Shown here: piece after piece, positions 12,601 through 50,302 of the stretch
Position numbering within the stretch: the first letter of the stretch is position 1
Layout: every line of letters begins with the position of its first letter
DNA from: Planctomycetaceae bacterium
GTDB taxonomy: Bacteria; Planctomycetota; Planctomycetia; Planctomycetales; Planctomycetaceae
DNA: 64,000 nucleotides
Assembly: GCA_018699955.1 (NCBI GenBank)
Contig: JABISG010000147.1
Coordinates: 96,544-160,543 of the forward strand
Reading direction: 5' to 3'
The notes under the pieces: model-generated
What the model saw: the letters and a program-made list of their open reading frames with translations, nothing else
Database searches by the model: none
Told to the model about the DNA's origin: nothing
Program-made: the position numbers and the translations under genes

Positions 12601-13331
12601 CGGTACTCCATGCGAACATCATCCGGCAGGTCCCCAGTGCCGTTCTCTGCGGCGTTCTCCACATAGACAGTCAGTGCGTCGCCGCGTGCCAGGCGCAATG
12701 GGGTTGTCGGGTCGTATTCGAGCGGTCGGAAATCGGCATCCAACAGTCGCAAATCGGTCGTTCGCGGCCAGGCGATGTCGGCAAACGGAAAGACCAGACG
12801 GTTCATCGCGATGCCGGCGTTCACTTGGTTGAAGCCGACAAGCAGTGCCGAAGTCAGGCAGACGGCCACAGCGATTGCAACGAGACGCCGGACGTTGCTC
12901 GTTTCAATCACGTCAGAAAGATTCAGCCGACCCGCTTGCCGTGTCGTTTGCTGAATCACGCGACGCTGCAGTTGGGTTGAGCCGACGGCCGGATCGATTC
13001 CCTTTTCCAGAAATTCCACCGTACTGGCCAGACTGTCGTTGAAACCGGGGAACCGTTTCTCGATACGCAATGCCAGATCGACGTCGGATGGTTGATGCCG
13101 CAACGGCCCGATCAGACGTCGCCATCCAACCCATCCCGCGGCGGTGAGAATCGTCAGACCCAATATCAATCGCACGCCGGAGTCGTCGAGGTGAATGGCC
13201 CAATCGGTCATTCCCACCAGCATGGCCGCACCAAAGACGACGGCGATCAGCCAACTCAATCCGTACAGCCACACCACCTGACGAATCCGCCGGCGTAAGC
13301 GCGACAATCGTTGATCGAGCGGTTCAGACAT
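9636..13331 (-). CDS. large membrane protein: two N-terminal TM helices, beta-rich middle region, ~600-aa coiled-coil (DUF4175-like, of the type found in BatA/MoxR neighbourhoods)
   Basis: 1231 aa from ATG (MSEPLDQRLSRL...). TMs are WLYGLSWLIAVVFGAAML and LILGLTILTAAGWVGW. Long E/R/Q/L-rich heptad region. Operon partner of the VWA protein. Confidence 0.65.
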   Translation of the reverse strand: MSEPLDQRLSRLRRRIRQVVWLYGLSWLIAVVFGAAMLVGMTDWAIHLDDSGVRLILGLTILTAAGWVGWRRLIGPLRHQPSDVDLALRIEKRFPGFNDSLASTVEFLEKGIDPAVGSTQLQRRVIQQTTRQAGRLNLSDVIETSNVRRLVAIAVAVCLTSALLVGFNQVNAGIAMNRLVFPFADIAWPRTTDLRLLDADFRPLEYDPTTPLRLARGDALTVYVENAAENGTGDLPDDVRMEYRYSDDESVHEVLRLATRRDADGNPREVGVATLVATRGPVWFRAVGGDDWDKPLFKLEVVPPPLIEDLQVTLTPPKYSGQPVERLADGVGHLQGLVGTEVEVNARVNKRLKSASLQVRGRKPQPIELAKDGRRLKTRFTITDPGVYSYWFDLKDSQGFENPEAPRYEVRAVADMPPEIQIEQPAVDLYVTAVADVSLRFQVRDDLGLKSVRLHYKLGNSQDDSIEPRLLRDGEVETERPLELTIEETWLLSELMLSPGMRIVFYATANDDYDLGNEHVGRSISRTLTIITAEEKKAELAGRQSELLEELERLVKAQLLAREQVGELETQLNTVGALRASDVDLLKRIELDQRQISARLLNPVDGFESKARDSIADLKLNKIDAPEMTARLQQIADEVAAMRQNLLPVIEQELTRARKAANSAIGLRAEEEAAGDTSPTNTEDEKAEPTDSATERSTEATTDGEESAALERAKENQDAVLESLAVMRGKLLQWRIRNDLLKELGELIAGQQRVQQDATEIGRKTLGRSGLEQLKPQEEADLAKVSQRQRRQADRLDEFRETLKAQSDDKSKASPNGTLQDAQQHIEENATGSKMRQTADALKRNQVGIAAEAQQQIADDLEELRNILSDRGNPDSEVLVKQLKQAEEELLELRKRQDELHKKTRDAEQITDRKQREQELQQLRKQQQEIREEVARLSRRLRRLQARKAGSSAGRAAERLRQTEERLGSDEPADAAREQQESLDDLEQSQRELAQARREAEERLARELMEKMGDKLKLMIVMQQAVIDETLRLDAAHKKRGSWSRGQLSSLKRLRETQDNLRRDTAELIEEMASVEVFVLALEGASRDMKITADRLDKRQTDQITIAAEEAAKRRFVELVDALKPEQSSGQSPPAGGTGAEQQPPGATGAVPKLAELKMLKTIQEGLLRRTAEIDAQRRKNGRLSDEQQRELEAIASDQGRLADLARNLMQIINEAIELDETPAKPGGGGF

Positions 13332-13371
13332 TGGTTTGACTCGTTGACAAAACTTTCCGTTACAAGCTAAA

Positions 13372-13857
13372 TCACATTGGACGTTCAAGTTCCGTTTCAT
13401 CCATGCCCAGTGTCATGTCAAAAGTTACCACTGTAATCGGATCGTCGGACTCTTCTGTGATATCGGGAATATTCACCGCAACACGGAGTCGGCGACTTCC
13501 AGGAAACTCAAATTTGATTGAATCCACACGATGTCCAACCGTCGCAAACAGCCAGGCATAAACAGCCGATTCGTCGGGAGAAAAACTGGTAACTGGTGGT
13601 GAGATTGATTTCGTTCCATTTTCCAATTCTGCATCCGTTATCGGGATTCCCCAAATTCGAAACGTGGCATCAGAACCCCCGATGAATTCAGAGTCTTCGA
13701 AATCAATCCAATCGGAACCATGTTCAATGGCAAGTTTTTGCGCACCATCCTCGTCAAAAAACATGTGAGCTGGCGATTTGTGAAGTGCGTGGCATTCAGC
13801 AGGCAAACCGGGATGATTAATGCACATGTGTGCCGGTTTATGTCTTGGTTCGGTCAT
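13372..13857 (-). CDS. hypothetical acidic cytoplasmic protein encoded in a low-GC insert
   Basis: 161 aa from ATG 13855-13857 (MTEPRHKPAHMCINHP...). No TM, pI acidic. GC is about 48% in 13332-13970 versus about 60% in the flanks. Confidence 0.4.
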   Translation of the reverse strand: MTEPRHKPAHMCINHPGLPAECHALHKSPAHMFFDEDGAQKLAIEHGSDWIDFEDSEFIGGSDATFRIWGIPITDAELENGTKSISPPVTSFSPDESAVYAWLFATVGHRVDSIKFEFPGSRRLRVAVNIPDITEESDDPITVVTFDMTLGMDETELERPM

Positions 13858-13971
13858 TTGAATCGCCAATTCAAAGGAACATCACAAGTTGTAGTGACGC
13901 AAAAACAAACAAAACGTTCCAACTTTCGCTCTTGTCTCTCGTCTCTAGACTCTCGACCCGCAACTCCTCCA

Positions 13972-30306: not shown

Positions 30307-30951
30307 ATGCCTGAGTTTCTCGAAACGAGTTTTATGTGGCCCACTTTGCCGGCGACCCTGCTGGTGTTGGTGTGCTGCACCTATTGGCTGATGGTGATGT
30401 TGGGAGCGCTAACGGTTGACGCGCTTCATATCGATTTTCACGACATTCACTTCGACACCGACGTTGATGGGTCACTGCTCGATCTGGGCTTTGTCCCTTT
30501 CAGGTTTCTGAACCTTGGCCGCGTGCCGTTGATGTTTTGGCTGAGCGTTTTTGGGTTGTCGGCGTGGGTGGTCTCGCGGGTGATTTTGACCAATTTTGAA
30601 CATTTGGAACCGCATAGCGGATTTGATTTTACGAATGACTCGTTAGCAATCGTGCGGGATTTCGCCATAGCTGCTGCCATCACCAAAATTCTGACACAGC
30701 CGTTGTGTGGGAAGTTCGACGTTGTTGAGCCGATTGGCTCGAAAGACCTGTTGGGCAAAACCTGCCGCGTCACGACAAATGAAGTCACAGACAAGTACGG
30801 GGAAGCAAATTTCGCGACCGATGCCGCACCGCTGGTGCTGCATGTGCGAGCGGCTGAAGAAACACTGAGTAAAGGTGATTTCGCCAAAATCGTTGATTAC
30901 TCACCGGAAGAAAACATTTATTTCGTCAAACGAGCGGAACAAGAGGTGTAA
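30307..30951 (+). CDS. YqiJ/NfeD-like inner-membrane protein (flotillin-operon partner)
   Basis: AAGGAG RBS, ATG at 30307. Three TM helices, then a C-terminal beta-rich (OB-like) region. The stop lies 2 bp before the flotillin ATG. Confidence 0.6.
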   Translation: MPEFLETSFMWPTLPATLLVLVCCTYWLMVMLGALTVDALHIDFHDIHFDTDVDGSLLDLGFVPFRFLNLGRVPLMFWLSVFGLSAWVVSRVILTNFEHLEPHSGFDFTNDSLAIVRDFAIAAAITKILTQPLCGKFDVVEPIGSKDLLGKTCRVTTNEVTDKYGEANFATDAAPLVLHVRAAEETLSKGDFAKIVDYSPEENIYFVKRAEQEV

Positions 30952-30953
30952 CT

Positions 30954-33047
30954 ATGCCAGAAAACCTGAGCACAATCCTGGTCCCTGTTATTGTCACATT
31001 GGTCACTCTAATCGGACTTGCGACTCTCTTCTCGCGATTCTATCGCAAGCCAGGGCCGGAAGAGGCCATTGTGCGGACCGGTGTTCGCGGATTGAATGTC
31101 TGCACGGGCAATGGCATGGTTGTCATTCCGTTGATCCAGGAAGCCCACGTGATGGATATGTCGGTCAAGCGGATCGAGATTTCCCGCGAAGGTGAAGATG
31201 GGTTGATCTGCCAGGACAACATCCGGGCCGACATCAAGGTTGCGTTTTTCGTACGCGTCAACAACGCGACGGAAGATATTAAGGCGGTTGCCGAGATGCT
31301 CAACCCGCAGCGGGCCTCCGACATCAACCAGTTACGCGAATTGTTCGAGGCGAAGTTCTCAGAAGCATTGAAGACCGTCGGCAAGCAGTTCGACTTTGTT
31401 TCGCTGTACACCGACCGCGACAACTTCCGCGACAAGATCATCGCCGAGATCGGCACAGACCTGAACGGTTATCGGCTCGATAATTGTCACATCGATTATC
31501 TGGAGCAGACCCGACTCGAGATGCTCAATCCGCATAACATTCTCGACGCCGAGGGCATCAAGAAGATCACCGAATTGACCACGGTCGAGAACATGGCACG
31601 GAATCACTTCGAGGTTGAAGAAGCCAAGACGATTAAGAAACAGAACGTGGAGCGTGACGAGACGCTGTACGAACTTGAACGACAACGCGTCGAGGCCGAG
31701 CAGAAGCAACAGCGAGAGATCGCTGAAATCACTGCTCGCGAACATGCCGAGGCGGCGAAAGTGCAGGAAGAGCAGCGGCTGAAGGCCGAGGCTGCCCGCA
31801 TTGCATCGGAAGAAGAAATCAAAGTTCGAGACGAAAACAAACAGCGGCAGATCATTGTCGCCATGCGTAACAAAGAGCGGACCGACAAGGTCGAAATCGA
31901 ACGCGTGGAAAAAGACCGCCTGCTGGAAGCGACCGAGCGCGAACGAGTCGTCGGCTTGGCCGACATCGAAAAAGAGAAGGCCATCGAAATCGAGAAGCGG
32001 AATATTCAAGAGGTGATCCGCGAACGCGTCGCCGTCGAACGCAGCGTGGTCGAGGAACAGGAAAACATCAAGAATACCCAGGAATTCATGGGCGTCGATC
32101 GGCTGAAACGGGTGACGGTCACCACCGCCGAAGCGACCGCGCAGGAACAATTGGTCAAGCAAGTCAAAGCGGCAGAAGCCAGCAAACAGTCGGCGGAGTT
32201 CCAGGCCGAAGAGGTTGTGGTGGAAGCCGAAGGCCAGCGGGCTGCGGCCGAGAAGCAGATGCAGGCCACCAAAATGTTGGCCGAAGCGAAAACCGCCGAC
32301 CACGCGGCGATTGGCCTGGGCGATGCCGAAGTCATTTTGGCCAAGGCCGACGCCAAAGAGAAAGACGGAACGGCCGAAGCTGCCGTCATTCAGCGCAAAG
32401 CAGTTGCGACAGCGAAGGGCGAAGAGGCCAAAGCGGTCGCCGTCGAGAAGCTGGGAACCGCCGAAGCGACCGTCATGCAGCAGAAGTTCAGCTCCGAAGC
32501 GAACGGTATCGAAGAGAAGGCCAACGCCATGAAACTCTTCGACGAAGTCGGTAAGGAGCACGAAGAATTCAAGCTGCGGCTGAACAAAGATAAGGACATC
32601 GAGATCGCAGCCATCGTAGCGCAGGAACACATCGCCGAGGCACAGTCGAACATTGTCGGCGAAGCGCTCAAGTCGGCCCGGATCGACATTGTCGGCGGCG
32701 AGACGACGTTCTTCGACCAGATTGTCAGTGCGGTTAAGGGCGGCAAGGCGGTCGATCGGTTCGTCAACAACAGCGACGTTCTCACCGACGTGAAAGGGGC
32801 GTTTTTCAACGGCAAGCCCGAGAACTTCCGCGAGAGCCTGAAAGGATTCGTCTCGCAATTTGGAATGAATTTCGAGGATGTCAAGGATATGTCGGTTGCT
32901 GCACTGATCGGCAAGATGCTGTTACAAGCCGACGATGCCGAGTCGAAGAATTCACTGCAAGGGTTGTTGAAAACGATTCGTGGTGCCGGTCTGGCGGAGA
33001 AACGCGTCGCAATGCTCGGCGTCACCGCGAGTGCAGCGGCCGATTGA
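30954..33047 (+). CDS. flotillin-like SPFH/band-7 protein (YqiK/FloT-like) with extended Ala/Glu/Lys coiled-coil
   Basis: N-terminal TM, SPFH core (VVIPLIQEAHVMDMSVKRIEI...), then a ~400-aa EA-rich repeat region; 697 aa. Confidence 0.9.
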   Translation: MPENLSTILVPVIVTLVTLIGLATLFSRFYRKPGPEEAIVRTGVRGLNVCTGNGMVVIPLIQEAHVMDMSVKRIEISREGEDGLICQDNIRADIKVAFFVRVNNATEDIKAVAEMLNPQRASDINQLRELFEAKFSEALKTVGKQFDFVSLYTDRDNFRDKIIAEIGTDLNGYRLDNCHIDYLEQTRLEMLNPHNILDAEGIKKITELTTVENMARNHFEVEEAKTIKKQNVERDETLYELERQRVEAEQKQQREIAEITAREHAEAAKVQEEQRLKAEAARIASEEEIKVRDENKQRQIIVAMRNKERTDKVEIERVEKDRLLEATERERVVGLADIEKEKAIEIEKRNIQEVIRERVAVERSVVEEQENIKNTQEFMGVDRLKRVTVTTAEATAQEQLVKQVKAAEASKQSAEFQAEEVVVEAEGQRAAAEKQMQATKMLAEAKTADHAAIGLGDAEVILAKADAKEKDGTAEAAVIQRKAVATAKGEEAKAVAVEKLGTAEATVMQQKFSSEANGIEEKANAMKLFDEVGKEHEEFKLRLNKDKDIEIAAIVAQEHIAEAQSNIVGEALKSARIDIVGGETTFFDQIVSAVKGGKAVDRFVNNSDVLTDVKGAFFNGKPENFRESLKGFVSQFGMNFEDVKDMSVAALIGKMLLQADDAESKNSLQGLLKTIRGAGLAEKRVAMLGVTASAAAD

Positions 33048-33061
33048 ACGACTTCACTTTG

Positions 33062-33146
33062 CCCGCCGTGACCACACGGCGGGTCGGCCGGCAATGCGAC
33101 GTCAAAATGATGATCGCACGTCGGCCGCCGGTGTGTTCACCGGCGG
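33062..33146 (+). promoter_or_regulatory. two strong hairpins in the flotillin-to-giant-gene spacer (7-bp and 10-bp stems), possible attenuator or processing site
   Basis: cccgccg-tgaccaca-cggcggg (33062-33083) and gccgccggtg-tgt-caccggcggc (33123-33146), with no U tract; directly upstream of the giant ORF start. Confidence 0.35.
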
Positions 33147-33155
33147 CTAAATCCC

Positions 33156-36100
33156 TTGATGCTAAATCGAGTCGCGACTCCTATGGCTACCGTCGAACAA
33201 GAATCTGCCGCTCAAGCGGCCGAGCCGGAAATCGCGCTGGAAAGCAGCACTTACGAAATCATTCGTAACCGGCTTTCTGGCGAAGGGAAAGAACTGCGCA
33301 GCCGGCTGGAAACGCTGAACCACGCCCGCAAAGAGGTCTTCGGATCGATCGAAACGGTCTTATTGGGGACGGAGCGGGTCACGACGGGACACAATTGTGT
33401 TCCCCGCGACATGGTGGCCATCGGCAACAGGTTTCTGTTCGGCTACAACGTGCATTTCGGGCTGAAGACCGAGCGTGGAATATCCGACGTCTTTTCCGTG
33501 TATGAGTTCCGCGAAAAGGCGTTTCACGAGTTGCCGCTAGACCTCATCAAATGCGAGCAATTCGAACGGGACTTCCACGACGTTCACCGCTTCTACAAGG
33601 ATGCGGAGTTTGCAAAGTTCTTTCGTCGCGGGCCGCATCTGTTTATGGTCTTCCGTGTCGGCAAGGGCGTCGGCGACATCAAAGCTTTCAAGTGGCTGGT
33701 GCGCGGCGATTCGCTCGAATACCTCGACAACCGCAGCGATCACGAAGTGGCGTTTCCCGCGCAGCACGAATTCGAATGGAAACGAACGCATCGCGACCTG
33801 CATCAGCACGGTGAGCATCCCCACATTTCGATCGAAGACCGAGTGTTTGTTGAGACGGTCGGCGGTGACCTCACCATCAAAATTGAGGACAGTACCGAAA
33901 CGGGCGAGGGCATTTACTCGGAGCCGGTGGACAACCCCGATCAGACACTCGACGATGCGGAGATTCACTATTCCATCGTCGGCAACATTGTCCTGCTGAA
34001 GATTCGCCCCTATCAGGAAGAACAAACTCGCTACATCGTTTACAACGAGAAGATCCAGCGGGCGATGCGGCTCGACTCCATCGAACATGCCTGCGTGTTG
34101 CTGCCCGACGATCACGGGCTGATTTTCTCCAACGGGTATTATCTGCAGGATGGGCAGTCGAAGACTTTCGGCAGCGGCCTGAAGGACATGCTGTTCGAGC
34201 GGCGATTTGCCGCGCCGAACGGCGAGGATTATCTCTTCGTCTTCTATCACCGCCGCTCCGGTTCCTACGTGCTGCTGCCGTACAATCTCATCTCCCAGCA
34301 GGTCGATACGCCGATTGTCTGCCACGGCTATTCCTTCTTTGAAGGCGGCGAGATGATCTGCTTCAAGGGGCAGGACGAGCCGCAGAAGCACCACGCCATT
34401 CAGCTTTGGCAAACGCCCTACGTCGGCGAGAACTACAAACCGCCCACACAAACCGATTCGTTCTTGTACAAGATTGGCAACAAGGACATTGTTCGCGGCA
34501 TGTCCGAGTGCTACGAGGTGCTCAATCTCATCGAGAAAGAGGACACCTACGCCGGCTTGTACATTGATCTGGTCAAAGAAGCCGGCGACATCGTCGATTC
34601 CTATTTCTGGATCGGCAACGAAGAGGCCGGCAACCTGAAACAGACGCTGCTCGAAATCAAGCAGGCAGCGACAGCCGCCGTTGATGAATTCGAAAAGGTC
34701 GTCCGCGTCCGTCAGAACACGGCATCCGAGACCAACCGCGTCCAAAAGCACGCTCGCGAAACACTGGCGACCGTCAATCGTGGGCGGTTCGATGCGATCG
34801 ACGGTTTCGTCAAATCGTTGGCGGAACTGCGAACCTGTCGAGGCGAGATTATCTCGCTGAAGGAGTTGCGGTACGTCGATCTGGAACTGGTCGAATCGCT
34901 GGAGAACGAAGTTGCCGAAGAGTCTGACCGACTCGCGGGCCGTTGTGTCGAGTTTCTGCTGAAGCCGGATGCGTTAAAGCCGTATCAGCAGAAGGTTGAA
35001 GAAGAACAATCGAAGATCAGCGGCCTCACGAAGGTGACCGAAGCCCGCAAGATCGAAGAAGACATCGCCACGAGTGCGAACGAACTTGAAATGCTGATCG
35101 AGATTGTCAGCAACCTCAAGATCGACGACGCCACCCAGCGGACGGCGATCATTGACAACATTTCGACGATCTTCTCGACGGTTAACCAGGCACGCGCTGC
35201 TCTGAAGAAGAAGACGCGTGAGCTGCTGTCGGTCGAGGGGATCGCGGAATTCAACTCGCAGATGAAACTCCTGAACCAGGGGGTCGTCAATTATCTCGAC
35301 ATCTGCGACACGCCGGAGAAGTGTGACGAATTCCTGACGAAGATGATGGTGCAGATTGAGGAACTGGAAGGCCGGTTCGCCGAGTTCGACGAGTTCGTCA
35401 TTCAATTGACCGAAAAACGCGAAGAGGTCTACAACGCGTTCGAGACCAAAAAGCTGGCGTTGGTCGAAGCTCGCAACAAGCGAGCCAGCGCGCTGGCTGC
35501 CGCTGCTGACCGGATTCTGAACGGGATCAAGAACCGCGTCGAGAGTTTTGAAACGATCAACGAGATCAACGGCTACTTTGCCTCGGACTTGATGATCGAA
35601 AAGGTCCGTGACATCGTCGAGCAACTCGCCGACCTCGACGATTCGGTCAAAGTTGATGACATTCAAAGCCGCTTGAAGACGGTTCGTGAAGATGCCGTCA
35701 GGCAGTTGAAGGATCGGCAGGAGTTGTACGTTGATGGCGAAAACGTCATCAAGTTTGGCAGCCGCAAGTTTACGGTCAATGTGCAACCGCTCGATTTGAC
35801 GAGCGTCTTTCGCGACGAGGAGTTGTGTCTGCATCTGACGGGTACGAATTTCTTCGAGCCGATCGTCAGCGATCGGTTGACCGCGACGAAGGACGTGTGG
35901 AACCAGGACGTGGTCTCGGAAAACCGGGACGTCTACCGGGCCGAGTTTCTCGCGCACACGATGTACCTGGCGATCGAAAATCAAGCTTCTTCAGATGACG
36001 AAGCGGATGTACCAACAGCCGAGGAATCCCGTCAACTCGATGCCGAGCAACTGCAGGCCGCCGTGGCCCGGTTTATGGGACCGCGGTACAGCGAGGGTTA

Positions 36101-38702
36101 CGTCAAGGGTGTTCATGATCACGATGCCGCGCTGATACTTCGGGCGCTGCTCGACATGGGCGCTGGCATTGGTCTGTTGCGTTTTCACACACGGTCGCGT
36201 GCTTTGGCAAACGTCTTCTGGAATCGGTTTGCCAACGGCACCGAGAAGAAGCAGATGGCTGCCAAACTGAAGGGTTTCGGAGCGGTCATCGAGCTGTTTC
36301 CCGATGCCGAGGCGCAATCGGAGTATCAGTCGCGTTTGCGAGACATGCTCGGCGAATTTGTCGCGCACAGTGAATTGTTCCCCGAATCGCTGGTTGACGA
36401 GGCGGCCGAGTATCTGTTCTGCGAGTTGATTCGCGGGGATGGGTTTGTCGTCAGTCGAACTGCGGCCAATTTGTACCGGGACTTCAACGAACATCTGACG
36501 CGCAGTAAGTTCGGTGACCGGTTTGCACAAACGGTGAAGTCGGTGCAGCGCGATCCGGCCGGCTGTTTGCTGCTGTTACGCGACTGGGTCGAGGCTTTTC
36601 TGCAGATGCGCACGAACGGCGGCGAGTCGCTGACGCTGGAATCTGAGTACGTCGATGAAGTCGCTGCGCAACTCGTCGAGAAGAAGATCGACCCACAGAA
36701 GATTGTGGAAGCCGACGTACTCTGCGAGTTGGAGGGGATGGTTGGTTCGCATCCGCGTGTGGACGGGGCCAAATACCGGCTGCATTACAACGAGTTCATG
36801 ATACGGCTTGACCAATTCAAAAAGACGGTCGTTCCTCGTTTCATCGAATACGGCAAACTGAAGAAAACGCTTCTCGAAGAGGCCCGCGAAGAGATGCGGC
36901 TGGAAGAATTTCGGCCTCGCGTGTTGACGTCGTTCGTACGCAACAAGCTGCTCGATACGGTTTACCTGCCGTTGATTGGGGACAATCTGGCAAAGCAAAT
37001 GGGGGAAGCGGGGGAGCAGAAACGGACCGATCGGATGGGGTTGCTGCTGTTGGTGTCGCCACCTGGATACGGCAAGACGACGTTGATGGAGTACATTGCC
37101 AACCGTTTGGGTATCATCTTCATGAAGATTAACGGGCCGGCCTTGGGTCACGAAGTGACGTCGCTGGACCCGGAAGCTGCGCCGAATGCCGGTGCGCGTG
37201 AGGAAGTTGAGAAACTGAATCTGTCGTTGGAGATGGGCGACAACGTGATGATCTATCTGGACGACATCCAGCACACGAATCCGGAGTTTCTGCAAAAATT
37301 CATATCGCTGTGTGATGCCACGCGGAAGATCGAGGGCGTCTACAAGGGGAAGACCCGCACCTACGATCTGCGCGGCCGAAAAGTCGCAGTTGTAATGGCG
37401 GGCAACCCCTACACCGAGAGCGGCGAGAAGTTCCAAATTCCCGACATGCTGGCCAACCGGGCCGACGTTTACAACCTGGGCGAAGTGGTGGGCGACAACG
37501 CGCCGGCTTTCGAGATGAGCTACCTCGAAAACTGCATGACTTCCAACCCCGCGCTGAATCACCTGGCGACTCGCAGCCAGCAGGACGTGTATGCCGTCAT
37601 GAAGATGGCCGCGCTTGGAAACAAGGACGGCGTGGAGTTGGATGGCAACTACTCGTTGGAAGAGTTGAACGAGATGATTTCGGCGATGCAGAAACTGATG
37701 CGCGTCCGCGACGTCATTCTGCAGGTGAACCGGGCATATATCGAGTCGGCCGCCCAGTCGGACGATTACCGCACCGAGCCGCCGTTCAAGCTGCAGGGTT
37801 CGTATCGCAATATGAACCGGATTGCCGAGAAGGTGTATCCGATTATGAACGACGAGGAACTGCAGACGCTGATTGTCTCAAACTACGAGCAGGATTCGCA
37901 GACGCTGACTTCGGGAACCGAGGCGAACATGCTGAAGTTCAAGGAGATCATGGGCATTCTAAGCGACGAAGAAGCGAAACGCTGGGACGATATCCAGCGC
38001 ACCTTCCAACGCAACGTGCGGATGCGGGGGATGGGCGAGGACGACAAGATTGGCCAGGCGATTGTCGAGCTGAGCGCATTTGGCGACGGATTGAATTCGA
38101 TCCGCCAAGCGATGACCGAGGGGGTCTCGCAACTGGCGGCGAAAGATGAAGACGACAGCGAAGTCACCGCCCGCGTTGCAGAACTGATCGGACACGTTGG
38201 CGGATTACGCGAGGGCATTGCCACCGTGTCGGAAGCGCTATCGGACGGCTTGCAGCAAGTGGGAGAACTGGTTCAGCACACTGCCGAACAATCTGCCGCC
38301 CGCGAGCCAGCTCCGGCACCGGTTGCGTTCGATTCGTCGGTCTTCAAGGAGTTGGCCGAGGCGATTCGAACGCAGGCTGCTTCACAGCAGGTCGTTCCAG
38401 AGCGGGCCGAGTCGCCGCCCGATGAAGATGGCGAACCGTCGGTCATCAGCGAATCGATTGTCGGCGGTGGTCCGGGCAGCGAGCAGAAGATTACGGTGAT
38501 CAACAAGATCCCCAGGACGATGCTCAACGTGATGGAGCAGCAATTCAAGCTGATGCATGGCTGGATGGAGCCGCTGACACAGTTGACGCATTCGCAGAAT
38601 TCCGATCTGCAGGAACTCAAAGAGTTGGTCGAAGGCTGCATGCGGGACTACGAGCAACTGATGCGCGGCTTGGGAAAAGCACGTGGGCGATCCGATTCGT
38701 AG
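33156..38702 (+). CDS. giant (1848 aa) uncharacterised protein with a single AAA+ ATPase module of the MoxR/McrB/dynein-midasin (AAA_5-like) clade
   Basis: Walker A LLLLVSPPGYGKTTL, Walker B VMIYLDDIQH, sensor region RGRKVAVVMAGNPY...QIPDMLANRADVYNL at about residues 1285-1450; flanked by about 1250 aa N-terminal and about 350 aa C-terminal mainly helical sequence. The start may be ATG 33159 or 33183. Confidence 0.8.
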   Translation: MMLNRVATPMATVEQESAAQAAEPEIALESSTYEIIRNRLSGEGKELRSRLETLNHARKEVFGSIETVLLGTERVTTGHNCVPRDMVAIGNRFLFGYNVHFGLKTERGISDVFSVYEFREKAFHELPLDLIKCEQFERDFHDVHRFYKDAEFAKFFRRGPHLFMVFRVGKGVGDIKAFKWLVRGDSLEYLDNRSDHEVAFPAQHEFEWKRTHRDLHQHGEHPHISIEDRVFVETVGGDLTIKIEDSTETGEGIYSEPVDNPDQTLDDAEIHYSIVGNIVLLKIRPYQEEQTRYIVYNEKIQRAMRLDSIEHACVLLPDDHGLIFSNGYYLQDGQSKTFGSGLKDMLFERRFAAPNGEDYLFVFYHRRSGSYVLLPYNLISQQVDTPIVCHGYSFFEGGEMICFKGQDEPQKHHAIQLWQTPYVGENYKPPTQTDSFLYKIGNKDIVRGMSECYEVLNLIEKEDTYAGLYIDLVKEAGDIVDSYFWIGNEEAGNLKQTLLEIKQAATAAVDEFEKVVRVRQNTASETNRVQKHARETLATVNRGRFDAIDGFVKSLAELRTCRGEIISLKELRYVDLELVESLENEVAEESDRLAGRCVEFLLKPDALKPYQQKVEEEQSKISGLTKVTEARKIEEDIATSANELEMLIEIVSNLKIDDATQRTAIIDNISTIFSTVNQARAALKKKTRELLSVEGIAEFNSQMKLLNQGVVNYLDICDTPEKCDEFLTKMMVQIEELEGRFAEFDEFVIQLTEKREEVYNAFETKKLALVEARNKRASALAAAADRILNGIKNRVESFETINEINGYFASDLMIEKVRDIVEQLADLDDSVKVDDIQSRLKTVREDAVRQLKDRQELYVDGENVIKFGSRKFTVNVQPLDLTSVFRDEELCLHLTGTNFFEPIVSDRLTATKDVWNQDVVSENRDVYRAEFLAHTMYLAIENQASSDDEADVPTAEESRQLDAEQLQAAVARFMGPRYSEGYVKGVHDHDAALILRALLDMGAGIGLLRFHTRSRALANVFWNRFANGTEKKQMAAKLKGFGAVIELFPDAEAQSEYQSRLRDMLGEFVAHSELFPESLVDEAAEYLFCELIRGDGFVVSRTAANLYRDFNEHLTRSKFGDRFAQTVKSVQRDPAGCLLLLRDWVEAFLQMRTNGGESLTLESEYVDEVAAQLVEKKIDPQKIVEADVLCELEGMVGSHPRVDGAKYRLHYNEFMIRLDQFKKTVVPRFIEYGKLKKTLLEEAREEMRLEEFRPRVLTSFVRNKLLDTVYLPLIGDNLAKQMGEAGEQKRTDRMGLLLLVSPPGYGKTTLMEYIANRLGIIFMKINGPALGHEVTSLDPEAAPNAGAREEVEKLNLSLEMGDNVMIYLDDIQHTNPEFLQKFISLCDATRKIEGVYKGKTRTYDLRGRKVAVVMAGNPYTESGEKFQIPDMLANRADVYNLGEVVGDNAPAFEMSYLENCMTSNPALNHLATRSQQDVYAVMKMAALGNKDGVELDGNYSLEELNEMISAMQKLMRVRDVILQVNRAYIESAAQSDDYRTEPPFKLQGSYRNMNRIAEKVYPIMNDEELQTLIVSNYEQDSQTLTSGTEANMLKFKEIMGILSDEEAKRWDDIQRTFQRNVRMRGMGEDDKIGQAIVELSAFGDGLNSIRQAMTEGVSQLAAKDEDDSEVTARVAELIGHVGGLREGIATVSEALSDGLQQVGELVQHTAEQSAAREPAPAPVAFDSSVFKELAEAIRTQAASQQVVPERAESPPDEDGEPSVISESIVGGGPGSEQKITVINKIPRTMLNVMEQQFKLMHGWMEPLTQLTHSQNSDLQELKELVEGCMRDYEQLMRGLGKARGRSDS

Positions 38703-38802: not shown

Positions 38803-41800
38803 TCAGTCGAAGAGTTCTTCGCTTGGCTTCTTCATTTCTGCTTTCCACTGCCGCAGCCGCAGGATGCAGATTGTGCCGCCCGCCAGTCCGCTGACGAGAT
38901 GTCGGCCATCGGGCGTGAAGGCGACGTCGCCGACGTGGCGAGGAGATGGCCCGAAGCGGAATTGTTGTTCCTCGATGCCGTAGTGCGTATCGTGAACGAA
39001 GTTGCTTCCGGTTCCAATCGAACGGACCCAGATCCTCCCCTGTGGCTGGCTGGCGACGCACGCCTCTTCCAACGCTCCCTGGAACGGCTCGTGACCGAGT
39101 CGTCCTGTTGTGAGATCCCAGATGCGCACTGCATCGTGTCCCCCACCTCGCACGGTGAAGAAGACTCGTGTTCCGTTGGCGGAAAATTGTACGTCGATCA
39201 ACCTGCAGTCATTGTCGGCGACGTTGATGGTTGTGGACCGCTTGCCTTTTTCGACGTCCCAGAGGATCACGCCGTCGATGTGTGCGGCAGTCGTGCCGAC
39301 GGCGAGAAGCTTACCGTTGGGGCTATAGGACAGACAGGTGATGTAGCCATCGTGTTCGTCGAGTGAGTTCACTTCTTTGTATGTTCTCGTATTCCAGACG
39401 CGAATCCCTTTGTCTGCGCCGGCCGATGCCAGGTGGATGCCATCGGGGTGGGCGGCCAGCGCAAATACAGGGTGCAAATGCTCGTGCATTTCGTGCAGTT
39501 TCTTGCCGGTGTTTGTGTCCCACAGACGAACCAGTTGATCCTGACTGGCCGTCGCCAATACATCCCCATTCTGCAAGAACTCAATGTCGTAAATTGCCTC
39601 GATGTGAGCGTCGATGCGACGCAATAGCTTGCCGGTTACGACATCCCACAAACCGACGGACCCATCGAGTCCGGCGGATGCGATTCGACGACCGTTGGGG
39701 CTGACAGCGAGTGACGTGATGATGCCGTGGTGTCCGTCCGCTGGAAACTGCTCCTGCCCCGTTTCGGCATTGAAAAATCTCACCGAACCATCCTGGAATC
39801 CCGCTGCAAGTGTTTCCCCATCGGGACTGATTTCGAGACAAAGTGCCCGTGGAAGGGGACTGCTGGCCTTCTCCCATTCGCGTTTCTCACCGGTCGCCGA
39901 GTCATAAATTGCCAGGCTGCCCTGTTGAAATACTGCCAGTTGTTTTCCGTCCCGGCTAATGGCCGGCGGTAGCCACCCGCCTCCCAACGGAATCGTTAGT
40001 CGGTAGGCTCCGCCACCTTGTTTCCAATCCCAGATCTCCAGATGATTGCCTGCACCACGATAAGCGAGCAGGCCGCCACGGGCCGAAAACGGTCTGCGGC
40101 CTCGCAGTTCAGTCGCGATCGCCTCACCAGTGTTGGTGTTCCAGAATGTGATCTCGCCGTCATTGTCCTGCGAGGCAGTCGCCAGCATGCTGCCGTCGGA
40201 GTTGAAGCCGATCTCGAATCGCTGATCGGGCCATTGCTGCAGCCGCTTGCCGGTAATCGAGTTGAATAAGTACGTTCCAATCGTATCACTGGACGCGATC
40301 GACTTGCCATCTGGGCTGAAGGCGACACCAACCACTTTCCCTTCATGCCTGGGCAACTCGGTGACAGATTTCCCGGTTTCAACATTCCAGATTCCCACCA
40401 GGAAATCGAGATAGGCAGCAGCCAGCAGACTTCCATCGGGACTGAACGACAGCGAATGACAGTTCCAGTGTTTGACGGGAATCGTGCGGACGTGAACTCC
40501 CGTGGCGACGTCCCATAGCCGGATGTGCTCATCGTAGCTACTGGATGCCAGGAGTTTGCCGTCGGGGCTGAAGGCAACCGAGCGGACGTCGCGCGAAGCA
40601 TGTGACAATCGATTGCCGCCCAGGACGGCCACCAGTTGCTCCGGGGCGTCGTCGATATCTCCGTTGCCGGCGATCAACCGCTGCTCGTCGGTCAGTGTTT
40701 GGCGGCTCAACCGATCAACCGGCCATTTGAACTGCCACATCAACCAAGCCGCTTCCAACGATTCCGGCGATCCCGGATGCTGTCGCCGAAATTCGACGAG
40801 TCGATTTTGTATGGCCGTCAACTGCTGCTCGTCGTCTTGTTTCACGTTGATCGACTGGAATTCCTTCACCAACTGTGTGAATTCTTCTTGTCTCACGGTT
40901 GCCAGCTTGGGCGACCATTTCGGCTGAAATGTGACGACGTCGCCTCTCTCAGGTGACAACGTTTCCTCGATGTCTTCGTAGCCTTTCCGCTTCAATAGCA
41001 GGGCTTGTTTCCCTGGATCGCCGGAGAGTTTGATGGCTCCCTGTTTGGGCAACGGAACCTTGTGACCATTCAATGTGATCGAACCGCCGGCCCGCATTTC
41101 TGGTGGCCAATCGACGATCAGCGTCGTCTTTCCCGTCCAGACCCAACCAATGTATCCTACGACCAGCAACAGAAACACTCCGACTCCGCCGAAGATGATC
41201 CAGCGTTGGGCCGCACCAGATTTGCGTCGGCCGCGAATTCGAGACGCAGACAAATTGGATTGACTCTCGTCGGCTTCTACCGGCACCATGGGAGCGGCGG
41301 TTGACGCGAAGGCCGTCGCTTCCGCAGCCGTCTGCGTCGATGGGTCATCGGTCTGCATGATCGAGGCTTCACTTCCCAGGTCTTGCAGGAAATGTTGCAA
41401 TTCCGAGCCGGCTGGTGAGGCTGGCGGTGCGGGAGTGACTGCCTCTGTCTGTTCGGCAATAGGGGCGATCGTCGGTGGGGGAGTCTTTTCGGTGGACTCG
41501 GCCGTCGCTGCTTTCGGCAAGATCTGAGCGAACGGCACGAGCGCCGCAACAACCTCGGCGGGGGTTTGGAATCGATTATCCGGATTGCGGGCAAGCATGC
41601 GTGCGACGATCGCGTCGATTTCCGGTGGCACATCACCGCGAACACTGCTGGCCGGCGGCGCATCCCGCTCGTTGCGCGCCAGCAGTTTTTCGATCAGCGT
41701 ATTGCCGGTGAATGGAACCTGGTTGGTCAAGAGGCGAAAGAACGTGCAACCCAGGCTGAAAATGTCGCTGCGGACGTCGGCCGTTTTGGAATCGCGTGCC

Positions 41801-42552
41801 TGTTCGGGGGCAATGTAATCGGGCGTCCCCATCAGCTGCCCGGTGTGCGTCAAGTCGGCTTCGGCCTCGGCATCGGTCATACGGGCAAGGCCCATGTCGA
41901 GCAGCTTGATCACCGGCTCGTTCGAGCTGGTGGCGTGTGTCACCAGCAGATTGCTCGGCTTGATATCGCGATGGACGAGCTTCCGCTCGAATGCGTGTTG
42001 CAGACCTTGTGCCGCCTGCATGATGTAGTGACAGGCTTCGCCAACCGGAAGCGCGCCGTCCCGTTTCACCAGCGAGCCGAGATCCTCGCCATCGACGTAT
42101 TCCATGACCAGAAAATATGTGCTGCCGGCATGATTGGCATCGTAGGCGGCAACGATATTCGGGTGATCGAGCGATGCAGCCGACTGAATTTCCCGGTAAA
42201 ACCGCGCGACCGATTCCTGGTCCTTCATCAGCTTTCGCGCCACCACCTTAATGGCAACCAGCCGGCCGAGCGGTTGCTGCTCCGCTTTGAAGACCGAACC
42301 CATGCCGCCGGCACCGATGCGTTCCAACAGCTTGTACCGGCCTAAGAAGAACGCATGGCGGCCGGCGAGCAACATCTCGGCCTGCCACTGCGTCAGAATT
42401 TGCTGCGCCACGAGCCGCCGCGCGAACTGCTTTGTGTCGCCATTCCCACTGTCGCGAGCGACCTCGTCACGAATCCGAGCCAAATCATCAGCTGCAAGCA
42501 GGCTGCTTTTCTCAAGCCCGTCGAGGAACTGATTCAGCGAAACCGCAGGCAT
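38803..42552 (-). CDS. Ser/Thr protein kinase with Pro/Ala-rich linker, one TM segment and C-terminal WD40 beta-propeller(s)
   Basis: Hanks motifs GAGGMGSVFKA, VAIK, HRDIKPSNLL, DFGLA, APE. TM is IIFGGVGVFLLLVVGYIGWVW. There are 14 or more WD-like repeats (WDVATG, WNVETG...). ATG at 42550-42552. Confidence 0.9.
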   Translation of the reverse strand: MPAVSLNQFLDGLEKSSLLAADDLARIRDEVARDSGNGDTKQFARRLVAQQILTQWQAEMLLAGRHAFFLGRYKLLERIGAGGMGSVFKAEQQPLGRLVAIKVVARKLMKDQESVARFYREIQSAASLDHPNIVAAYDANHAGSTYFLVMEYVDGEDLGSLVKRDGALPVGEACHYIMQAAQGLQHAFERKLVHRDIKPSNLLVTHATSSNEPVIKLLDMGLARMTDAEAEADLTHTGQLMGTPDYIAPEQARDSKTADVRSDIFSLGCTFFRLLTNQVPFTGNTLIEKLLARNERDAPPASSVRGDVPPEIDAIVARMLARNPDNRFQTPAEVVAALVPFAQILPKAATAESTEKTPPPTIAPIAEQTEAVTPAPPASPAGSELQHFLQDLGSEASIMQTDDPSTQTAAEATAFASTAAPMVPVEADESQSNLSASRIRGRRKSGAAQRWIIFGGVGVFLLLVVGYIGWVWTGKTTLIVDWPPEMRAGGSITLNGHKVPLPKQGAIKLSGDPGKQALLLKRKGYEDIEETLSPERGDVVTFQPKWSPKLATVRQEEFTQLVKEFQSINVKQDDEQQLTAIQNRLVEFRRQHPGSPESLEAAWLMWQFKWPVDRLSRQTLTDEQRLIAGNGDIDDAPEQLVAVLGGNRLSHASRDVRSVAFSPDGKLLASSSYDEHIRLWDVATGVHVRTIPVKHWNCHSLSFSPDGSLLAAAYLDFLVGIWNVETGKSVTELPRHEGKVVGVAFSPDGKSIASSDTIGTYLFNSITGKRLQQWPDQRFEIGFNSDGSMLATASQDNDGEITFWNTNTGEAIATELRGRRPFSARGGLLAYRGAGNHLEIWDWKQGGGAYRLTIPLGGGWLPPAISRDGKQLAVFQQGSLAIYDSATGEKREWEKASSPLPRALCLEISPDGETLAAGFQDGSVRFFNAETGQEQFPADGHHGIITSLAVSPNGRRIASAGLDGSVGLWDVVTGKLLRRIDAHIEAIYDIEFLQNGDVLATASQDQLVRLWDTNTGKKLHEMHEHLHPVFALAAHPDGIHLASAGADKGIRVWNTRTYKEVNSLDEHDGYITCLSYSPNGKLLAVGTTAAHIDGVILWDVEKGKRSTTINVADNDCRLIDVQFSANGTRVFFTVRGGGHDAVRIWDLTTGRLGHEPFQGALEEACVASQPQGRIWVRSIGTGSNFVHDTHYGIEEQQFRFGPSPRHVGDVAFTPDGRHLVSGLAGGTICILRLRQWKAEMKKPSEELFD

Positions 42553-42728
42553 AGGACACAAGTGGGAATTCGGGGTTGGTGCATATGGGGGAAAATACGC
42601 GGTTAGAGTGTAGTGGAAGAAGATTTACAAATCTATTGCGTTACACTATCGTCGCGATCGGCGAGCGTCTTCGACTGGGGAAGAGCATCCACTGGTCGAA
42701 GCGCTGACGGCGACATTTTGGCAGCAGT

Positions 42729-47431: not shown

Positions 47432-50302
47432 ATGAGCAATCCGATTGAAGCCTGGAAATCTGAAAAACATCCATTCGATGTCTGGTCCGACGTCGAGAAA
47501 CATGCGGCGGCGAAGACGCCGATGAAGTCGATTGCTGCGCCCGATTTGGAGCGGATGAAGTGGCACGGGTTTTTGTATCGCAAGCGGGATGGGGCAGGGC
47601 GGTACATGAGCCGCATTCGCATCACCGCCGGCGAATTGACCGGGAAGCAGGCCCGCGAGATTGCGCACATTGCGTACGAATACGGTCACGGCATTGTCGA
47701 TGTGACGACCCGCGCCAACCTGCAGATTCAAGGGTTGGGAATCGAACATGTGCCGAAGGTTGTCGAACGGTTGGCGAATGTGGGGCTGTCGGCAAAACAG
47801 ACGGGACACGACAACATTCGCAATGTGTTTGCCCATCCCTTCAGCGGACTGATGCCGGGCGAATTGATCGACACGCGGCAGTTAAGCCACGACGTGACTG
47901 CGTTGTTCATCGACAGTCGGACGTATTCCGATTTGCCGCGGAAGATGAATATCTGCCTGAATGGCACCGACCAGCATTCCGCGCACTTCTGGACACAGGA
48001 CATTAGTTTTCTGGCGACCGAAGTCGATGGCGACGTGTTGTTTCACATGCTGATTGCCGGCACACAGGGACAGAACCCGCATCTCGCGTGGCATCTGCCG
48101 GTGTTGGTGCAGCCGGATCAGGTCGTTGAAGTCACACGGTCACTGCTCGACTTGTTCCGCGCGAAAGGGTCGCGCGAAAAACGTAACGTCACCCGATTTC
48201 GTTTCCTCGTCGAGAAGATCGGCGTGGGGGGCGTGCTCGATTGGCTGGAGGGGGATTTGCCGTTCCCACTGCAACCGTCTGTCGGCGAGCCGTCACCGGC
48301 GACCGGGCACGATGAACTTGTCGGCTGGTTTCGGCAGGCGGAGCCGAAACTGTGGACGATGGGACTTTCGGTTCCGCTGGGCCGCATGACGTGGCAGCAA
48401 CTCGAAGGCTTGGCGCTTTTGAGCGGCAAGTGGGGAGATGGCAATCTGCGGACAACGCACGAGCAGGGGATTGCCGTCGCAAATATTCCGCCTGGTTTTC
48501 GCGAAGCCGCCGCCACCGATGCAGCCGCTGCCGGATTGAGCGTTCATGCCGATCCATTTGAACTGAATACGATGGCCTGCACCGGCAGCCAGTTCTGTAA
48601 CATCGCCGTCACCGAAACCAAGGGGCAGATGTTCCAGCTGATTGAAAAGCTGCGGAAGCGGGCGCTGAAACTGCATGGCATACGTATCCACATGAGCGGT
48701 TGCCCGTCGAGTTGCGCGCAACACTTTACGGCCGACATCGGTTTGAAAGGTGTCCGCGTCCGCCGATTGATGGGGACGCGAGAAGGTTTCGATGTTTACC
48801 TGGGCGGCGGACTGGCGGGCCGCGTTCATATGGGGTTGCCGTTCCGGCTTGGTGTCGATGCCGATCAGCTACCGACGTTGGTGGAAGAGGTCGTTGGTGA
48901 ATTCTATCTGCGACACAAGGCGGGGCAGACCTTCAGCGCGTATTGGCGGGAAAAACTGCAGGCGGCTGAAGCCCGCAAAGTGATCGACGACGATTATCGT
49001 CTTCCCACCTGGTTGTGTGAGAGCTGCGATTACCAACACACGGGCGAAGATCCGCCCATTTATTGCCCGAGTTGTGCCGGCCTGCGTCGACACTTCGCAC
49101 GTCTGGAAGAAGGCGTTTCTCCCGACGCAGAAAAGGATGCCATAGTCGAAACCGTACCGACCCGCGACGACGGGTTTGTCTTCGCCGCAAAACACGATGC
49201 CTTATCCGCCGACGAAGGGCTGACAGTTGAAGTGGGCGGAAGCGAATACGCGTTGTTTCAGGTTGGCGACGACGTGAAGTGCATCGATTCCGCCTGTCCG
49301 CATGAAGGTGCTTCGCTTGCCGAGGGTGAAATGAAGGGCGGTGTCGTCACCTGTCCATGGCACGGCTGGAGATTCAACCCGTGTGACGGTTGCAGTCTCG
49401 ATTCCCCGGGGGACGACGTCGCAGCGTACAGGACGTTGGTTGAAGACGGAAACATTTTCATCGAGGTCGGTTCACCATCACAGGCAAGCAATTCCGGCGC
49501 ACCGAATTCAACGCAGGCGATCCTCGCGACTGCAGGCAAAGGAGCAGCGAAGAAGCCGCCGAGACCGGTGGAAGCGTTGTTGCCGGTGCTTGATGTCATC
49601 GACGAGTCGCCCAACGTTCGCACATTTCGGCTCGATAATTCCGTTGCCAGGATTCCGTTCGATTTGCCCGGTAAGTTTGCCAAGGTTTGCGTTCCCGCTG
49701 ACGATGGCGACGTTTGGCGGAGCTTTACAATCAGTTCTTCGCCCACAGTGACCGACCACATTGATCTGACGATTAAGCTGAACCCCGACGGCTGTGTGTC
49801 TCGGCATCTCTTTGAGAATGCTCAGCCCGGAAGCCATGTGAAAGTGAAGGGCGCACAGGGCGGGTTCTTCTTCGATGCGGAACGGCAAACCGAGCCGTTG
49901 GTGTTGATTTCCGCCGGCAGCGGGATCACACCGATGATGTCAATTGCCCGTTATCTCGATGCCGTCGGCAGTAACTTGGATTGCACATTTCTCTACGGAG
50001 CGCGGTCGTCGGGCGATGTCATCTTCCGCGATGAGTGTGAAGACATGGCGAAACGCCGACCGTCGTTTCGCTATCGTGTCACGCTTTCGCAGCCGAATGA
50101 TGACTGGAGCGGCGAATGCGGGCGGCTCGACTTTGACCGTGTTTCAAGATGGGTGGAGAACATTGGCGAGAGTTGCTACTTCCTCTGTGGACCAAACGAA
50201 TTCATGGACCAGCTGCGATCAGCGCTCGTCGATGCGGGTGTCGATTCGGATCATATTCACAGCGAAGAGTTTCACAGTTCACCAACACCGGTTGCGTTGT
50301 GA
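47432..50302 (+). CDS. nirA: multidomain nitrite reductase: siroheme/[4Fe-4S] ferredoxin-type nitrite reductase (NirA-like), rubredoxin-like zinc ribbon, Rieske [2Fe-2S] (NirD-like) and FNR-like FAD/NAD(P)-binding reductase
   Basis: NiR/SiR cluster motifs (CTGSQFC, SGCPSSC). CxxC...CPSC ribbon. Rieske CPHEG...CPWHGW. FNR motifs RSFTISS and ISAGSGITPM. 956 aa. Confidence 0.9.
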   Translation: MSNPIEAWKSEKHPFDVWSDVEKHAAAKTPMKSIAAPDLERMKWHGFLYRKRDGAGRYMSRIRITAGELTGKQAREIAHIAYEYGHGIVDVTTRANLQIQGLGIEHVPKVVERLANVGLSAKQTGHDNIRNVFAHPFSGLMPGELIDTRQLSHDVTALFIDSRTYSDLPRKMNICLNGTDQHSAHFWTQDISFLATEVDGDVLFHMLIAGTQGQNPHLAWHLPVLVQPDQVVEVTRSLLDLFRAKGSREKRNVTRFRFLVEKIGVGGVLDWLEGDLPFPLQPSVGEPSPATGHDELVGWFRQAEPKLWTMGLSVPLGRMTWQQLEGLALLSGKWGDGNLRTTHEQGIAVANIPPGFREAAATDAAAAGLSVHADPFELNTMACTGSQFCNIAVTETKGQMFQLIEKLRKRALKLHGIRIHMSGCPSSCAQHFTADIGLKGVRVRRLMGTREGFDVYLGGGLAGRVHMGLPFRLGVDADQLPTLVEEVVGEFYLRHKAGQTFSAYWREKLQAAEARKVIDDDYRLPTWLCESCDYQHTGEDPPIYCPSCAGLRRHFARLEEGVSPDAEKDAIVETVPTRDDGFVFAAKHDALSADEGLTVEVGGSEYALFQVGDDVKCIDSACPHEGASLAEGEMKGGVVTCPWHGWRFNPCDGCSLDSPGDDVAAYRTLVEDGNIFIEVGSPSQASNSGAPNSTQAILATAGKGAAKKPPRPVEALLPVLDVIDESPNVRTFRLDNSVARIPFDLPGKFAKVCVPADDGDVWRSFTISSSPTVTDHIDLTIKLNPDGCVSRHLFENAQPGSHVKVKGAQGGFFFDAERQTEPLVLISAGSGITPMMSIARYLDAVGSNLDCTFLYGARSSGDVIFRDECEDMAKRRPSFRYRVTLSQPNDDWSGECGRLDFDRVSRWVENIGESCYFLCGPNEFMDQLRSALVDAGVDSDHIHSEEFHSSPTPVAL

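Follow-up and report, generated by a model that had tools for sequence, protein, structure and literature searches.

A planctomycete locus for a YqiJ-like protein, a YqiK-type flotillin and a giant DUF3686 ATPase is a further case of a conserved three-gene envelope module

Introduction

What is a giant AAA+ ATPase doing beside a flotillin gene pair, and is such a set of genes new? The question is raised by a locus at positions 30307-38702 (+) of a 64,000-nucleotide stretch of Planctomycetaceae bacterium DNA (GenBank assembly GCA_018699955.1, contig JABISG010000147.1; this whole stretch is called the window below). Three co-directional open reading frames (ORFs) are found there, in what is otherwise an ordinary planctomycete chromosome (~57% GC). 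They encode a membrane protein resembling YqiJ/NfeD, a flotillin of the YqiK type and a soluble ATPase of giant size. An earlier note, made from the sequence letters alone, had read the set as a candidate undescribed membrane-microdomain machine and the giant as a protein with an AAA+ ATPase for its only recognizable module. From our analysis, the locus is best explained as one instance of a three-gene envelope module that is conserved and horizontally mobile, and for which an ATP-driven remodeller of flotillin assemblies is the most economical hypothesis.

Results

Linkage of the giant and flotillin genes across phyla

The ORF calls and two public Planctomycetaceae metagenome-assembled genome (MAG) assemblies, GCA_018703065.1 and GCA_018664515.1, in which the flotillin is 100% identical and the gene order the same, bore out the three linked, co-directional genes. 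The 2-nucleotide (nt) gap between the first two genes was confirmed, but the 108 nt given for the second gap become 135 nt when counted from a conserved start codon: the giant ORF opens at a TTG at 33156 (1848 amino acids, aa), while the ATG at 33183 is the start kept in relatives and annotated in the MAGs. The coordinates of all features are collected in Table 1.

To survey the gene neighborhood, one genome per GTDB species was searched with conserved peptide patterns taken from a diverse alignment, and the best 80 of at least 579 matches were kept, at least 579 species genomes thus carrying a homologue of the giant. Flotillin and YqiJ-like homologues in the surveyed loci, which came from Planctomycetota, Bacteroidota, Verrucomicrobiota, Desulfobacterota, Kiritimatiellota, Clostridia and Fibrobacterota, were found by blastp and tblastn. 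A flotillin homologue (31-71% identical) was present upstream of the giant gene and on the same strand in 67 of the 70 loci that had at least 2.4 kb upstream of that gene, six plasmid-database loci included, and the possibility raised with the earlier note, that homologues of the giant might never co-occur with flotillin genes, can be set aside. The gap between the two genes was below 400 nt in 45 of these 67 loci, the larger gaps being explained by inserted small genes (e.g. DUF559, PDDEXK_3). A YqiJ-like gene upstream of the flotillin was detected in 47 of 66 loci, detection being limited by the low conservation of this protein (20-38% identity). Across loci, the identities of the flotillin and of the giant to the window copies co-varied (r = 0.68, n = 67). 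Searching plasmid records by tblastn gave the same picture, with a flotillin directly upstream in 6/6 loci (Pseudomonas fluorescens SBW25 pQBR103, Streptomyces, Deinococcus, Vibrio campbellii, Proteus mirabilis and Nonomuraea) and giants 37-42% identical to that of the window. A segment of the Proteus ATPase found no match by blastn in 5,426 E. coli genomes. Taken together, a functional linkage of flotillin and giant, as opposed to a chance association, is strongly supported.

An operon already described, and its PspA partners

The module has been described before. Ravi et al. 2024 (mSystems 9:e00847-23, PMC11237479; preprint 2020) reported operons joining CesT/Tir-PspA with YqiJ/YuaF, band-7/flotillin and beta-propeller + coiled-coil + AAA+ genes, noted that the operon occurs with or without CesT/Tir-PspA, named the short form the 'abbreviated operon', and gave in a row of their Table S3 the gene order for Dokdonia donghaensis. 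That same order was found in Dokdonia sp. Hel_I_63 (a different strain from DSW-1), where the locus reads helix-turn-helix (HTH) gene (-), CesT_Tir_1, PspA, a 238-aa YqiJ-like protein, Band_7 and a DUF3686 giant, the ATPase being the DUF3686 protein. Bacteroidota loci share one order, namely a divergent HTH + S24 regulator followed by CesT_Tir_1 (PF22550), PspA (PF04012), YqiJ-like, flotillin and giant genes, and PspA was found in 15 and CesT/Tir in 14 of the surveyed loci (Bacteroidota). No homologue of PspA or CesT/Tir was found anywhere in the 64-kb window, which therefore carries the abbreviated form. The module has been known computationally (2020/2024) and is routinely annotated, and the window locus is an ordinary further case of its abbreviated form.

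At locus L084 (record 85112-97641) on pQBR103, a PspA - rhomboid - DUF2491 - DUF350 - DUF1190 - glutathionylspermidine-synthase operon is extended by the three genes. This locus lies on a well-studied megaplasmid of P. fluorescens SBW25, merges two PspA neighborhood classes that Ravi et al. distinguished, and has a host that is tractable in experiments. In Flavobacteriia, a divergent HTH + S24 peptidase-like (LexA/CI-type) regulator stands before the CesT-PspA-YqiJ-flotillin-giant operon (L093:1797-2552 (-) and cluster C4), which hints at control by a self-cleaving repressor.

These partners bring in a model where the flotillin/YqiJ assembly is only a platform that recruits the ATPase to microdomains and where the clients would be third parties, for example PspA (bacterial ESCRT-III) polymers, acted on in a Vps4-like manner, or membrane complexes to be chaperoned. 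The joining of PspA and CesT/Tir to the operon in the Bacteroidota loci counted above and the position of PspA at the head of the pQBR103 operon are consistent with such a role, and Ravi et al. 2024 (PMC11237479) favored a chaperone-like function in assembling membrane protein complexes. The propeller and rod of the giant (see below) could bind clients besides flotillin, and HflK/C-FtsH is a precedent of an SPFH cage hosting an AAA+ machine (PMC13220708). We consider this model less likely than not.

The cross-phylum distribution is patchy, the genes are found on megaplasmids, DNA methyltransferase or STAND-like neighbors occur occasionally, and the operon is tied to the 'phage shock' protein PspA, all of which would also fit a membrane-associated anti-phage or abortive-infection system with the giant ATPase sensing infection and the flotillin/YqiJ pair acting as the membrane effector. 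The earlier note had offered a membrane-associated defense system as an alternative; the PADLOC and phage-genome searches lent it no support, as no PADLOC model matched any of the three proteins (E <= 0.01) and tblastn against 50,697 phage records gave no homologues. Furthermore, no nuclease, toxin or pore domain was found in the proteins, the window flanks hold metabolic genes, no recurrent defense gene was seen among the neighbors, and the proteins evolve slowly (40-70% identity across phyla), unlike fast-evolving defense genes. A role in defense is thus improbable.

The giant protein belongs to the DUF3686 family

The AAA+ module had been taken for the sole recognizable part of the giant. 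Besides the AAA models, Pfam scans matched DUF7902 (E 4e-29) and, over aa 46-484, DUF3686 (E 6e-192), which Pfam describes as "ATPase involved in DNA repair", so that the protein falls in a curated and routinely annotated family, for which PGAP uses the name 'DNA repair ATPase'. The DUF3686 family holds more than 5,142 clusters at 90% identity; among clusters at 50% identity, 1,004 have a match to the N-terminal 700 aa of the giant, and the full-length ones measure 1,550-2,036 aa. An exact-sequence look-up of the window giant gave no record. One 'eukaryotic' protein (P0042, EukProt g33011.t1, 1711 aa) is 68% identical to the planctomycete giant and is most likely a bacterial contamination of the eukaryotic data set. 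Hydropathy revealed no hydrophobic segment in the giant, and neither the whole-family profile nor the N-terminal 1,246 aa had a match in the PDB.

Two AlphaFold2 (AF2) models were built with a 49-sequence alignment, residues 10-1150 being modeled at a predicted local distance difference test score (pLDDT) of 83.5. In the model of these residues, an N-terminal helix is followed by a beta-rich domain and by ~420 residues of long helices, after which come a small beta domain and another helical domain. The N-terminal domain is predicted to be a beta-propeller, probably with 7 blades, and Foldseek matched it to Kelch, WD40, prolyl-oligopeptidase, clathrin-terminal-domain and YncE propellers (E ~1e-5). 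The helical rod is spectrin-like. The C-terminal tail (~200 residues) is specific to long planctomycete and desulfobacterial forms and is missing from the ~1620-1660-aa forms of Bacteroidota, Verrucomicrobiota and Clostridia; tblastn coverage of the giant stops near aa 1653 in most loci.

If the Pfam and PGAP names were right, the giant would be a DNA-repair ATPase merely placed beside membrane-protein genes. Other than these names, a weak RuvB_N match around Walker A and the LexA/CI-like HTH-S24 regulator upstream in Flavobacteriia point this way, and the 'DNA repair' name may itself go back to that regulator. Against this reading, the RuvB and RFC matches span the P-loop only, profile scans found no DNA-binding, nuclease or helicase domain, the constant partner genes encode membrane proteins, and no paper backing the name was found in the literature on the family. 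We regard a role in DNA repair as very improbable; nothing visible supports the name "DNA repair ATPase", which is widespread in databases and probably leads annotation astray.

The AAA+ module resembles MoxR ATPases

The Walker A, Walker B, sensor-1 and arginine motifs were found where the earlier note had put them. Among 16 diverse members, the AAA core has a mean identity of 73%, versus 28-43% for the propeller and the rod, and the Walker A, the DD Walker B, N1417, R1435 and a loop GH-V-SLDP at the pore-loop position are invariant in the family. This conservation of the core, by far the highest in the protein, together with its intact motifs argues for an active motor.

The MoxR-type class suggested earlier stands (AAA_5/clade 7), on evidence from predicted structure, as the best structural match of the modeled module was to MoxR proteins and covered both the alpha/beta core and the lid. 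Scanned alone, the segment scored 24.4 bits with AAA_5 against a cut-off of 22 (profile positions 2-127 of 139), while PF00004 aligned over its positions 1-69 only, and precomputed AAA_5 matches exist for many family members. A place in the classical clade of AAA proteins (p97/VAT/Vps4) was considered and rejected: the sequence-only PDB matches to VAT and p97 cover only the Walker A region and were misleading, and the module does not show the best match over the whole AAA domain, with a second region of homology bearing two arginine residues, that would be expected of that clade.

The first two genes resemble a divergent yqiJ-yqiK-type pair

Pfam is nearly silent on the first two proteins, and their family names were therefore checked by aligning profiles to E. 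coli proteins. Family alignments of the small protein and the flotillin were built from related loci, and the E. coli K-12 comparison proteins were taken from NC_000913.3. The flotillin profile aligned by hhalign with residues 19-422 of E. coli YqiK (probability 100%, E 1.3e-42, 32% identity, 398 columns), which confirmed the identity proposed for the 697-aa protein; Pfam Band_7 did not do so, giving no match to the window protein even at E = 10 and matching just 4/38 family members. NCBIfam FloT matched the window flotillin with E 1.6e-5, and the match of the profile to the QmcA cage chain 8z5g was weak (E 3.6e-4). The GenBank annotation has a 685-aa version under the PGAP name 'flotillin family protein'.

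The flotillin comprises an N-terminal membrane anchor (aa 2-30), the SPFH region, a long Glu/Ala-rich helical region and a conserved C-terminal region (aa ~440-697). The latter (~250 residues) is well conserved within the clade, with H536, E537, E538, G581, G582 and F586 invariant, and does not align with the C-terminus of E. coli YqiK, which has no giant partner. Judged from conservation, this clade-specific region may be a docking site for the ATPase. Two metagenomic cluster representatives, P0372 (1798 aa) and P0376 (557 aa), look like the C-terminal part of a flotillin fused to a DUF3686 protein. P0372 runs from flotillin aa 191-600 into giant aa 232-1464. Both partners are truncated at the junction, and the two proteins may be deletion fusions or assembly artifacts rather than true Rosetta-stone fusions. 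The long antisense ORFs within the flotillin gene, 31359-32858 (-) of 499 aa and 32390-33094 (-) of 234 aa, are artifacts of Glu/Ala-rich coiled-coil coding sequence.

The small protein, whose 214-aa gene is called identically in the two MAG assemblies, shows at least two hydrophobic segments by hydropathy (aa 12-40 and aa 75-94); it further has an acidic loop and, at its C-terminus, a soluble domain. Of the YqiJ/NfeD-type assignment made earlier, the YqiJ part was supported by hhalign of the family profile to E. coli YqiJ (probability 96.5%, E 9e-10), whereas the Pfam NfeD model had no match and YqiJ_N stayed under its cut-off (E 7e-4; 20.2 bits vs 23). The YuaF soluble domain (2k14) matched weakly (E 0.16). 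The gene lies next to an SPFH gene and encodes transmembrane segments, and its product is a candidate member of the NfeD family (YqiJ/YuaF subgroup). On the profile comparisons, we assign the first two genes to a divergent pair of the yqiJ-yqiK type.

A structured spacer precedes the giant gene

The strong hairpins noted before the giant gene are real, three stem-loops being computed. The spacer folds at -67.6 kcal/mol (z = -5.8), with 0/200 dinucleotide shuffles folding as well, and no T-tract follows any of the three stem-loops. The hairpins are kept in the 95% and 91% relatives, whose spacers are nearly identical, while the 75% relative has an unrelated and unstructured spacer (z = +0.64). 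Of the flotillin-to-giant spacers of 40-400 nt in other loci and other phyla, 15/25 had z <= -3 against dinucleotide shuffles. Rfam holds no family for the spacer, and the idea of hairpin 3 as a repeated REP-like element was dropped, only one similar copy being present in the window. A plausible, putative role of the spacer would be to set a high flotillin-to-ATPase expression ratio via partial termination or protection of the 3' end of the upstream transcript.

In several Bacteroidota and Verrucomicrobiota loci (L019, L028, L029, L033, L040, L065 and L078), small genes for DUF559 (PF04480) or PDDEXK_3 (PF13366) nuclease-like proteins lie between flotillin and giant. They are probably selfish insertions using that intergenic site.

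Neighboring genes

The WD40 Ser/Thr kinase gene that had been described as convergent with the set is indeed so, but it adjoins the set only in close relatives and is therefore not part of the three-gene unit. It is one of two very large Ser/Thr kinases in the window (38803-42561 (-) and 60194-63289 (-)), one of which has ~14 WD40 repeats. A 956-aa fusion at 47432-50302 (+) joins nitrite/sulfite reductase (NIR_SIR), rubredoxin-like, Rieske and FAD/NAD-binding domains; with an MFS transporter before it and Fe-S/DmsC and molybdopterin oxidoreductase genes after it, the region is probably an assimilatory nitrate/nitrite cluster. At 9636-16401 (-), a 1254-aa DUF4175 protein and an 809-aa VWA-domain protein are encoded in tandem, unrelated to the three-gene set. 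The tandem resembles operons of the Bat/aerotolerance type, in which a MoxR ATPase is usually present. When the window was scanned for Rfam families and tRNA genes, no match was obtained.

Table 1. Positions in the window of the three genes, their domains and motifs, the spacer and the adjoining kinase gene
Feature	Position	Strand	Remarks
YqiJ/NfeD-like small inner-membrane protein, 214 aa	30307-30951	+	ATG start, AGGAG 8 nt upstream
YqiK-type flotillin, 697 aa	30954-33047	+	begins 2 nt past the stop of gene 1; hhalign to YqiK
Structured intergenic spacer, 135 nt	33048-33182	+	stem-loops ~33061-33084, 33086-33126, 33124-33147
Giant soluble ATPase, DUF3686 family	33183-38702	+	1839 aa from conserved ATG
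N-terminal beta-propeller (Pfam DUF3686 core), predicted	33351-34445	+	~27 strands in AF2 model, pLDDT mostly 85-95
Helical rod/bundle region	34446-36920	+	DUF7902 at nt 34968-35222, small beta domain at nt 35736-35870, second helical domain
AAA+ module, MoxR class by predicted structure	36921-37955	+	single, ~1,250 residues into the giant
Walker A SPPGYGKTT, aa 1301-1309	37056-37082	+	motif
Pore-loop-position segment GHEVTSLDPEAAPNAG	37146-37193	+	conserved
Walker B IYLDD, aa 1366-1370	37245-37274	+	motif
Pre-sensor-1 hairpin	37323-37376	+	beta-hairpin in AF2 model, aa 1391-1404
Sensor-1, N1417	37389-37418	+	motif
Arg-finger region, candidate R1435	37440-37478	+	motif
Conserved segment EPPFKLQGSYRNMN	37776-37820	+	conservation
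Lineage-specific C-terminal tail	37956-38699	+	long helices, disordered linker, terminal helix
Pkinase + WD40 protein	38803-42561	-	convergent with the giant gene

Discussion

The topology of the three proteins, with the giant soluble and the flotillin and YqiJ-like protein membrane-anchored, would favor a model where they form an envelope-stress module, with the ATPase as the remodeller of flotillin assemblies, a reading to which we give an even chance. The flotillin, anchored by its N-terminal hairpin, and its YqiJ-like partner would form an SPFH oligomer, shaped as a cage or a patch, at the cytoplasmic side of the inner membrane. The ATPase would oligomerize via its AAA+ ring, probably as a hexamer, and its propeller-tipped arms would reach the flotillin assembly, docking perhaps at the clade-specific C-terminal region. 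ATP hydrolysis could then assemble, disassemble or reshape the flotillin scaffold in a membrane-stress response, by analogy with CbbQ/NorQ acting on their dedicated partner, and the structured spacer would probably lower the expression of the ATPase relative to that of the flotillin. MoxR-type ATPases (CbbQ, NorQ, RavA) typically remodel one dedicated partner complex, and an obligate partner gene thus fits better with such an enzyme than with a general unfoldase. The narrower proposal, that the DUF3686 giant is a dedicated ATP-driven assembly/disassembly motor for flotillin (SPFH) cages, docking by its propeller-tipped arms on the flotillin C-terminus, is possible and offered tentatively, being on balance somewhat doubtful.

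Several points weigh against remodeling of flotillin by the ATPase. A VWA/MIDAS protein is the normal partner of MoxR ATPases, and no VWA/MIDAS domain was found in the three proteins by profile scans nor among their recurrent neighbors. The Walker B is DD instead of DE, and the aromatic-hydrophobic motif by which threading AAA+ unfoldases are marked is missing from the segment at the pore-loop position. The synteny by itself fits flotillin as the substrate or as a mere platform, any ATPase-flotillin contact being proposed from genomic context; the set of 80 loci is biased to the best matches; and the literature on DUF3686/DUF7902 proteins and flotillin-linked ATPases yielded no experimental work on any member. 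Three loci (L016, L023 and L044) have unrelated inserted genes and no upstream flotillin; they look rearranged and do not suggest an alternative partner.

A flotillin clade nearly always paired with a large MoxR-like ATPase gives a genetic and biochemical handle on the assembly, turnover and functional coupling of bacterial flotillin/SPFH scaffolds, and the same handle bears on how PspA-type membrane repair is energized in bacteria without Vps4. Manipulable carriers include P. fluorescens SBW25 pQBR103, Proteus mirabilis, Vibrio campbellii, Streptomyces and Flavobacteriia. If the narrower proposal of a dedicated motor is true, the DUF3686 giant would be the first nucleotide-powered remodeller known for a flotillin scaffold, an SPFH counterpart of Vps4 for ESCRT-III.

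Comparison with known systems

The closest known system is the operon of Ravi et al., all three genes, their order and their domain architectures (propeller, coiled-coil/rod, AAA+) being matched by the window. The window differs in having no CesT/Tir, PspA, phospholipase D or HTH-protease regulator, and the planctomycete ATPase in its extra ~200-aa C-terminal tail. That paper did not place the ATPase in an AAA+ clade or a Pfam family, nor did it quantify the synteny. Added here are the DUF3686/DUF7902 identification, the MoxR-class assignment from modeled structure, counts for the synteny, a flotillin C-terminus specific to the clade, a structured spacer that recurs in other loci, and the judgment that the name 'DNA repair ATPase' is unsupported.

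With E. coli yqiJK and B. subtilis yuaFG, the first two genes share the pairing, the order, the tight coupling, the N-terminal membrane anchor and profile homology to YqiK/YqiJ. In E. coli K-12, however, there is no third gene, the sib/ibs loci following yqiK, and the window flotillin is ~150 aa longer than YqiK, with an extra C-terminal region that cannot be aligned.

The alpha/beta core and lid, the AAA_5 profile and the pre-sensor-1 beta-hairpin of the predicted AAA+ module are those of the MoxR family (CbbQ, NorQ, RavA; relatives McrB and midasin), at a sequence identity to MoxR proteins of ~14%. Whereas MoxR proteins have ~270-500 aa, the module here is part of a propeller-rod protein with no VWA/MIDAS partner and with a DD Walker B. 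Finally, HflK/C-FtsH and Vps4-ESCRT-III likewise couple an AAA+ ring to a membrane-bound scaffold polymer or cage, a comparison that is meant solely in the sense of 'works like'.

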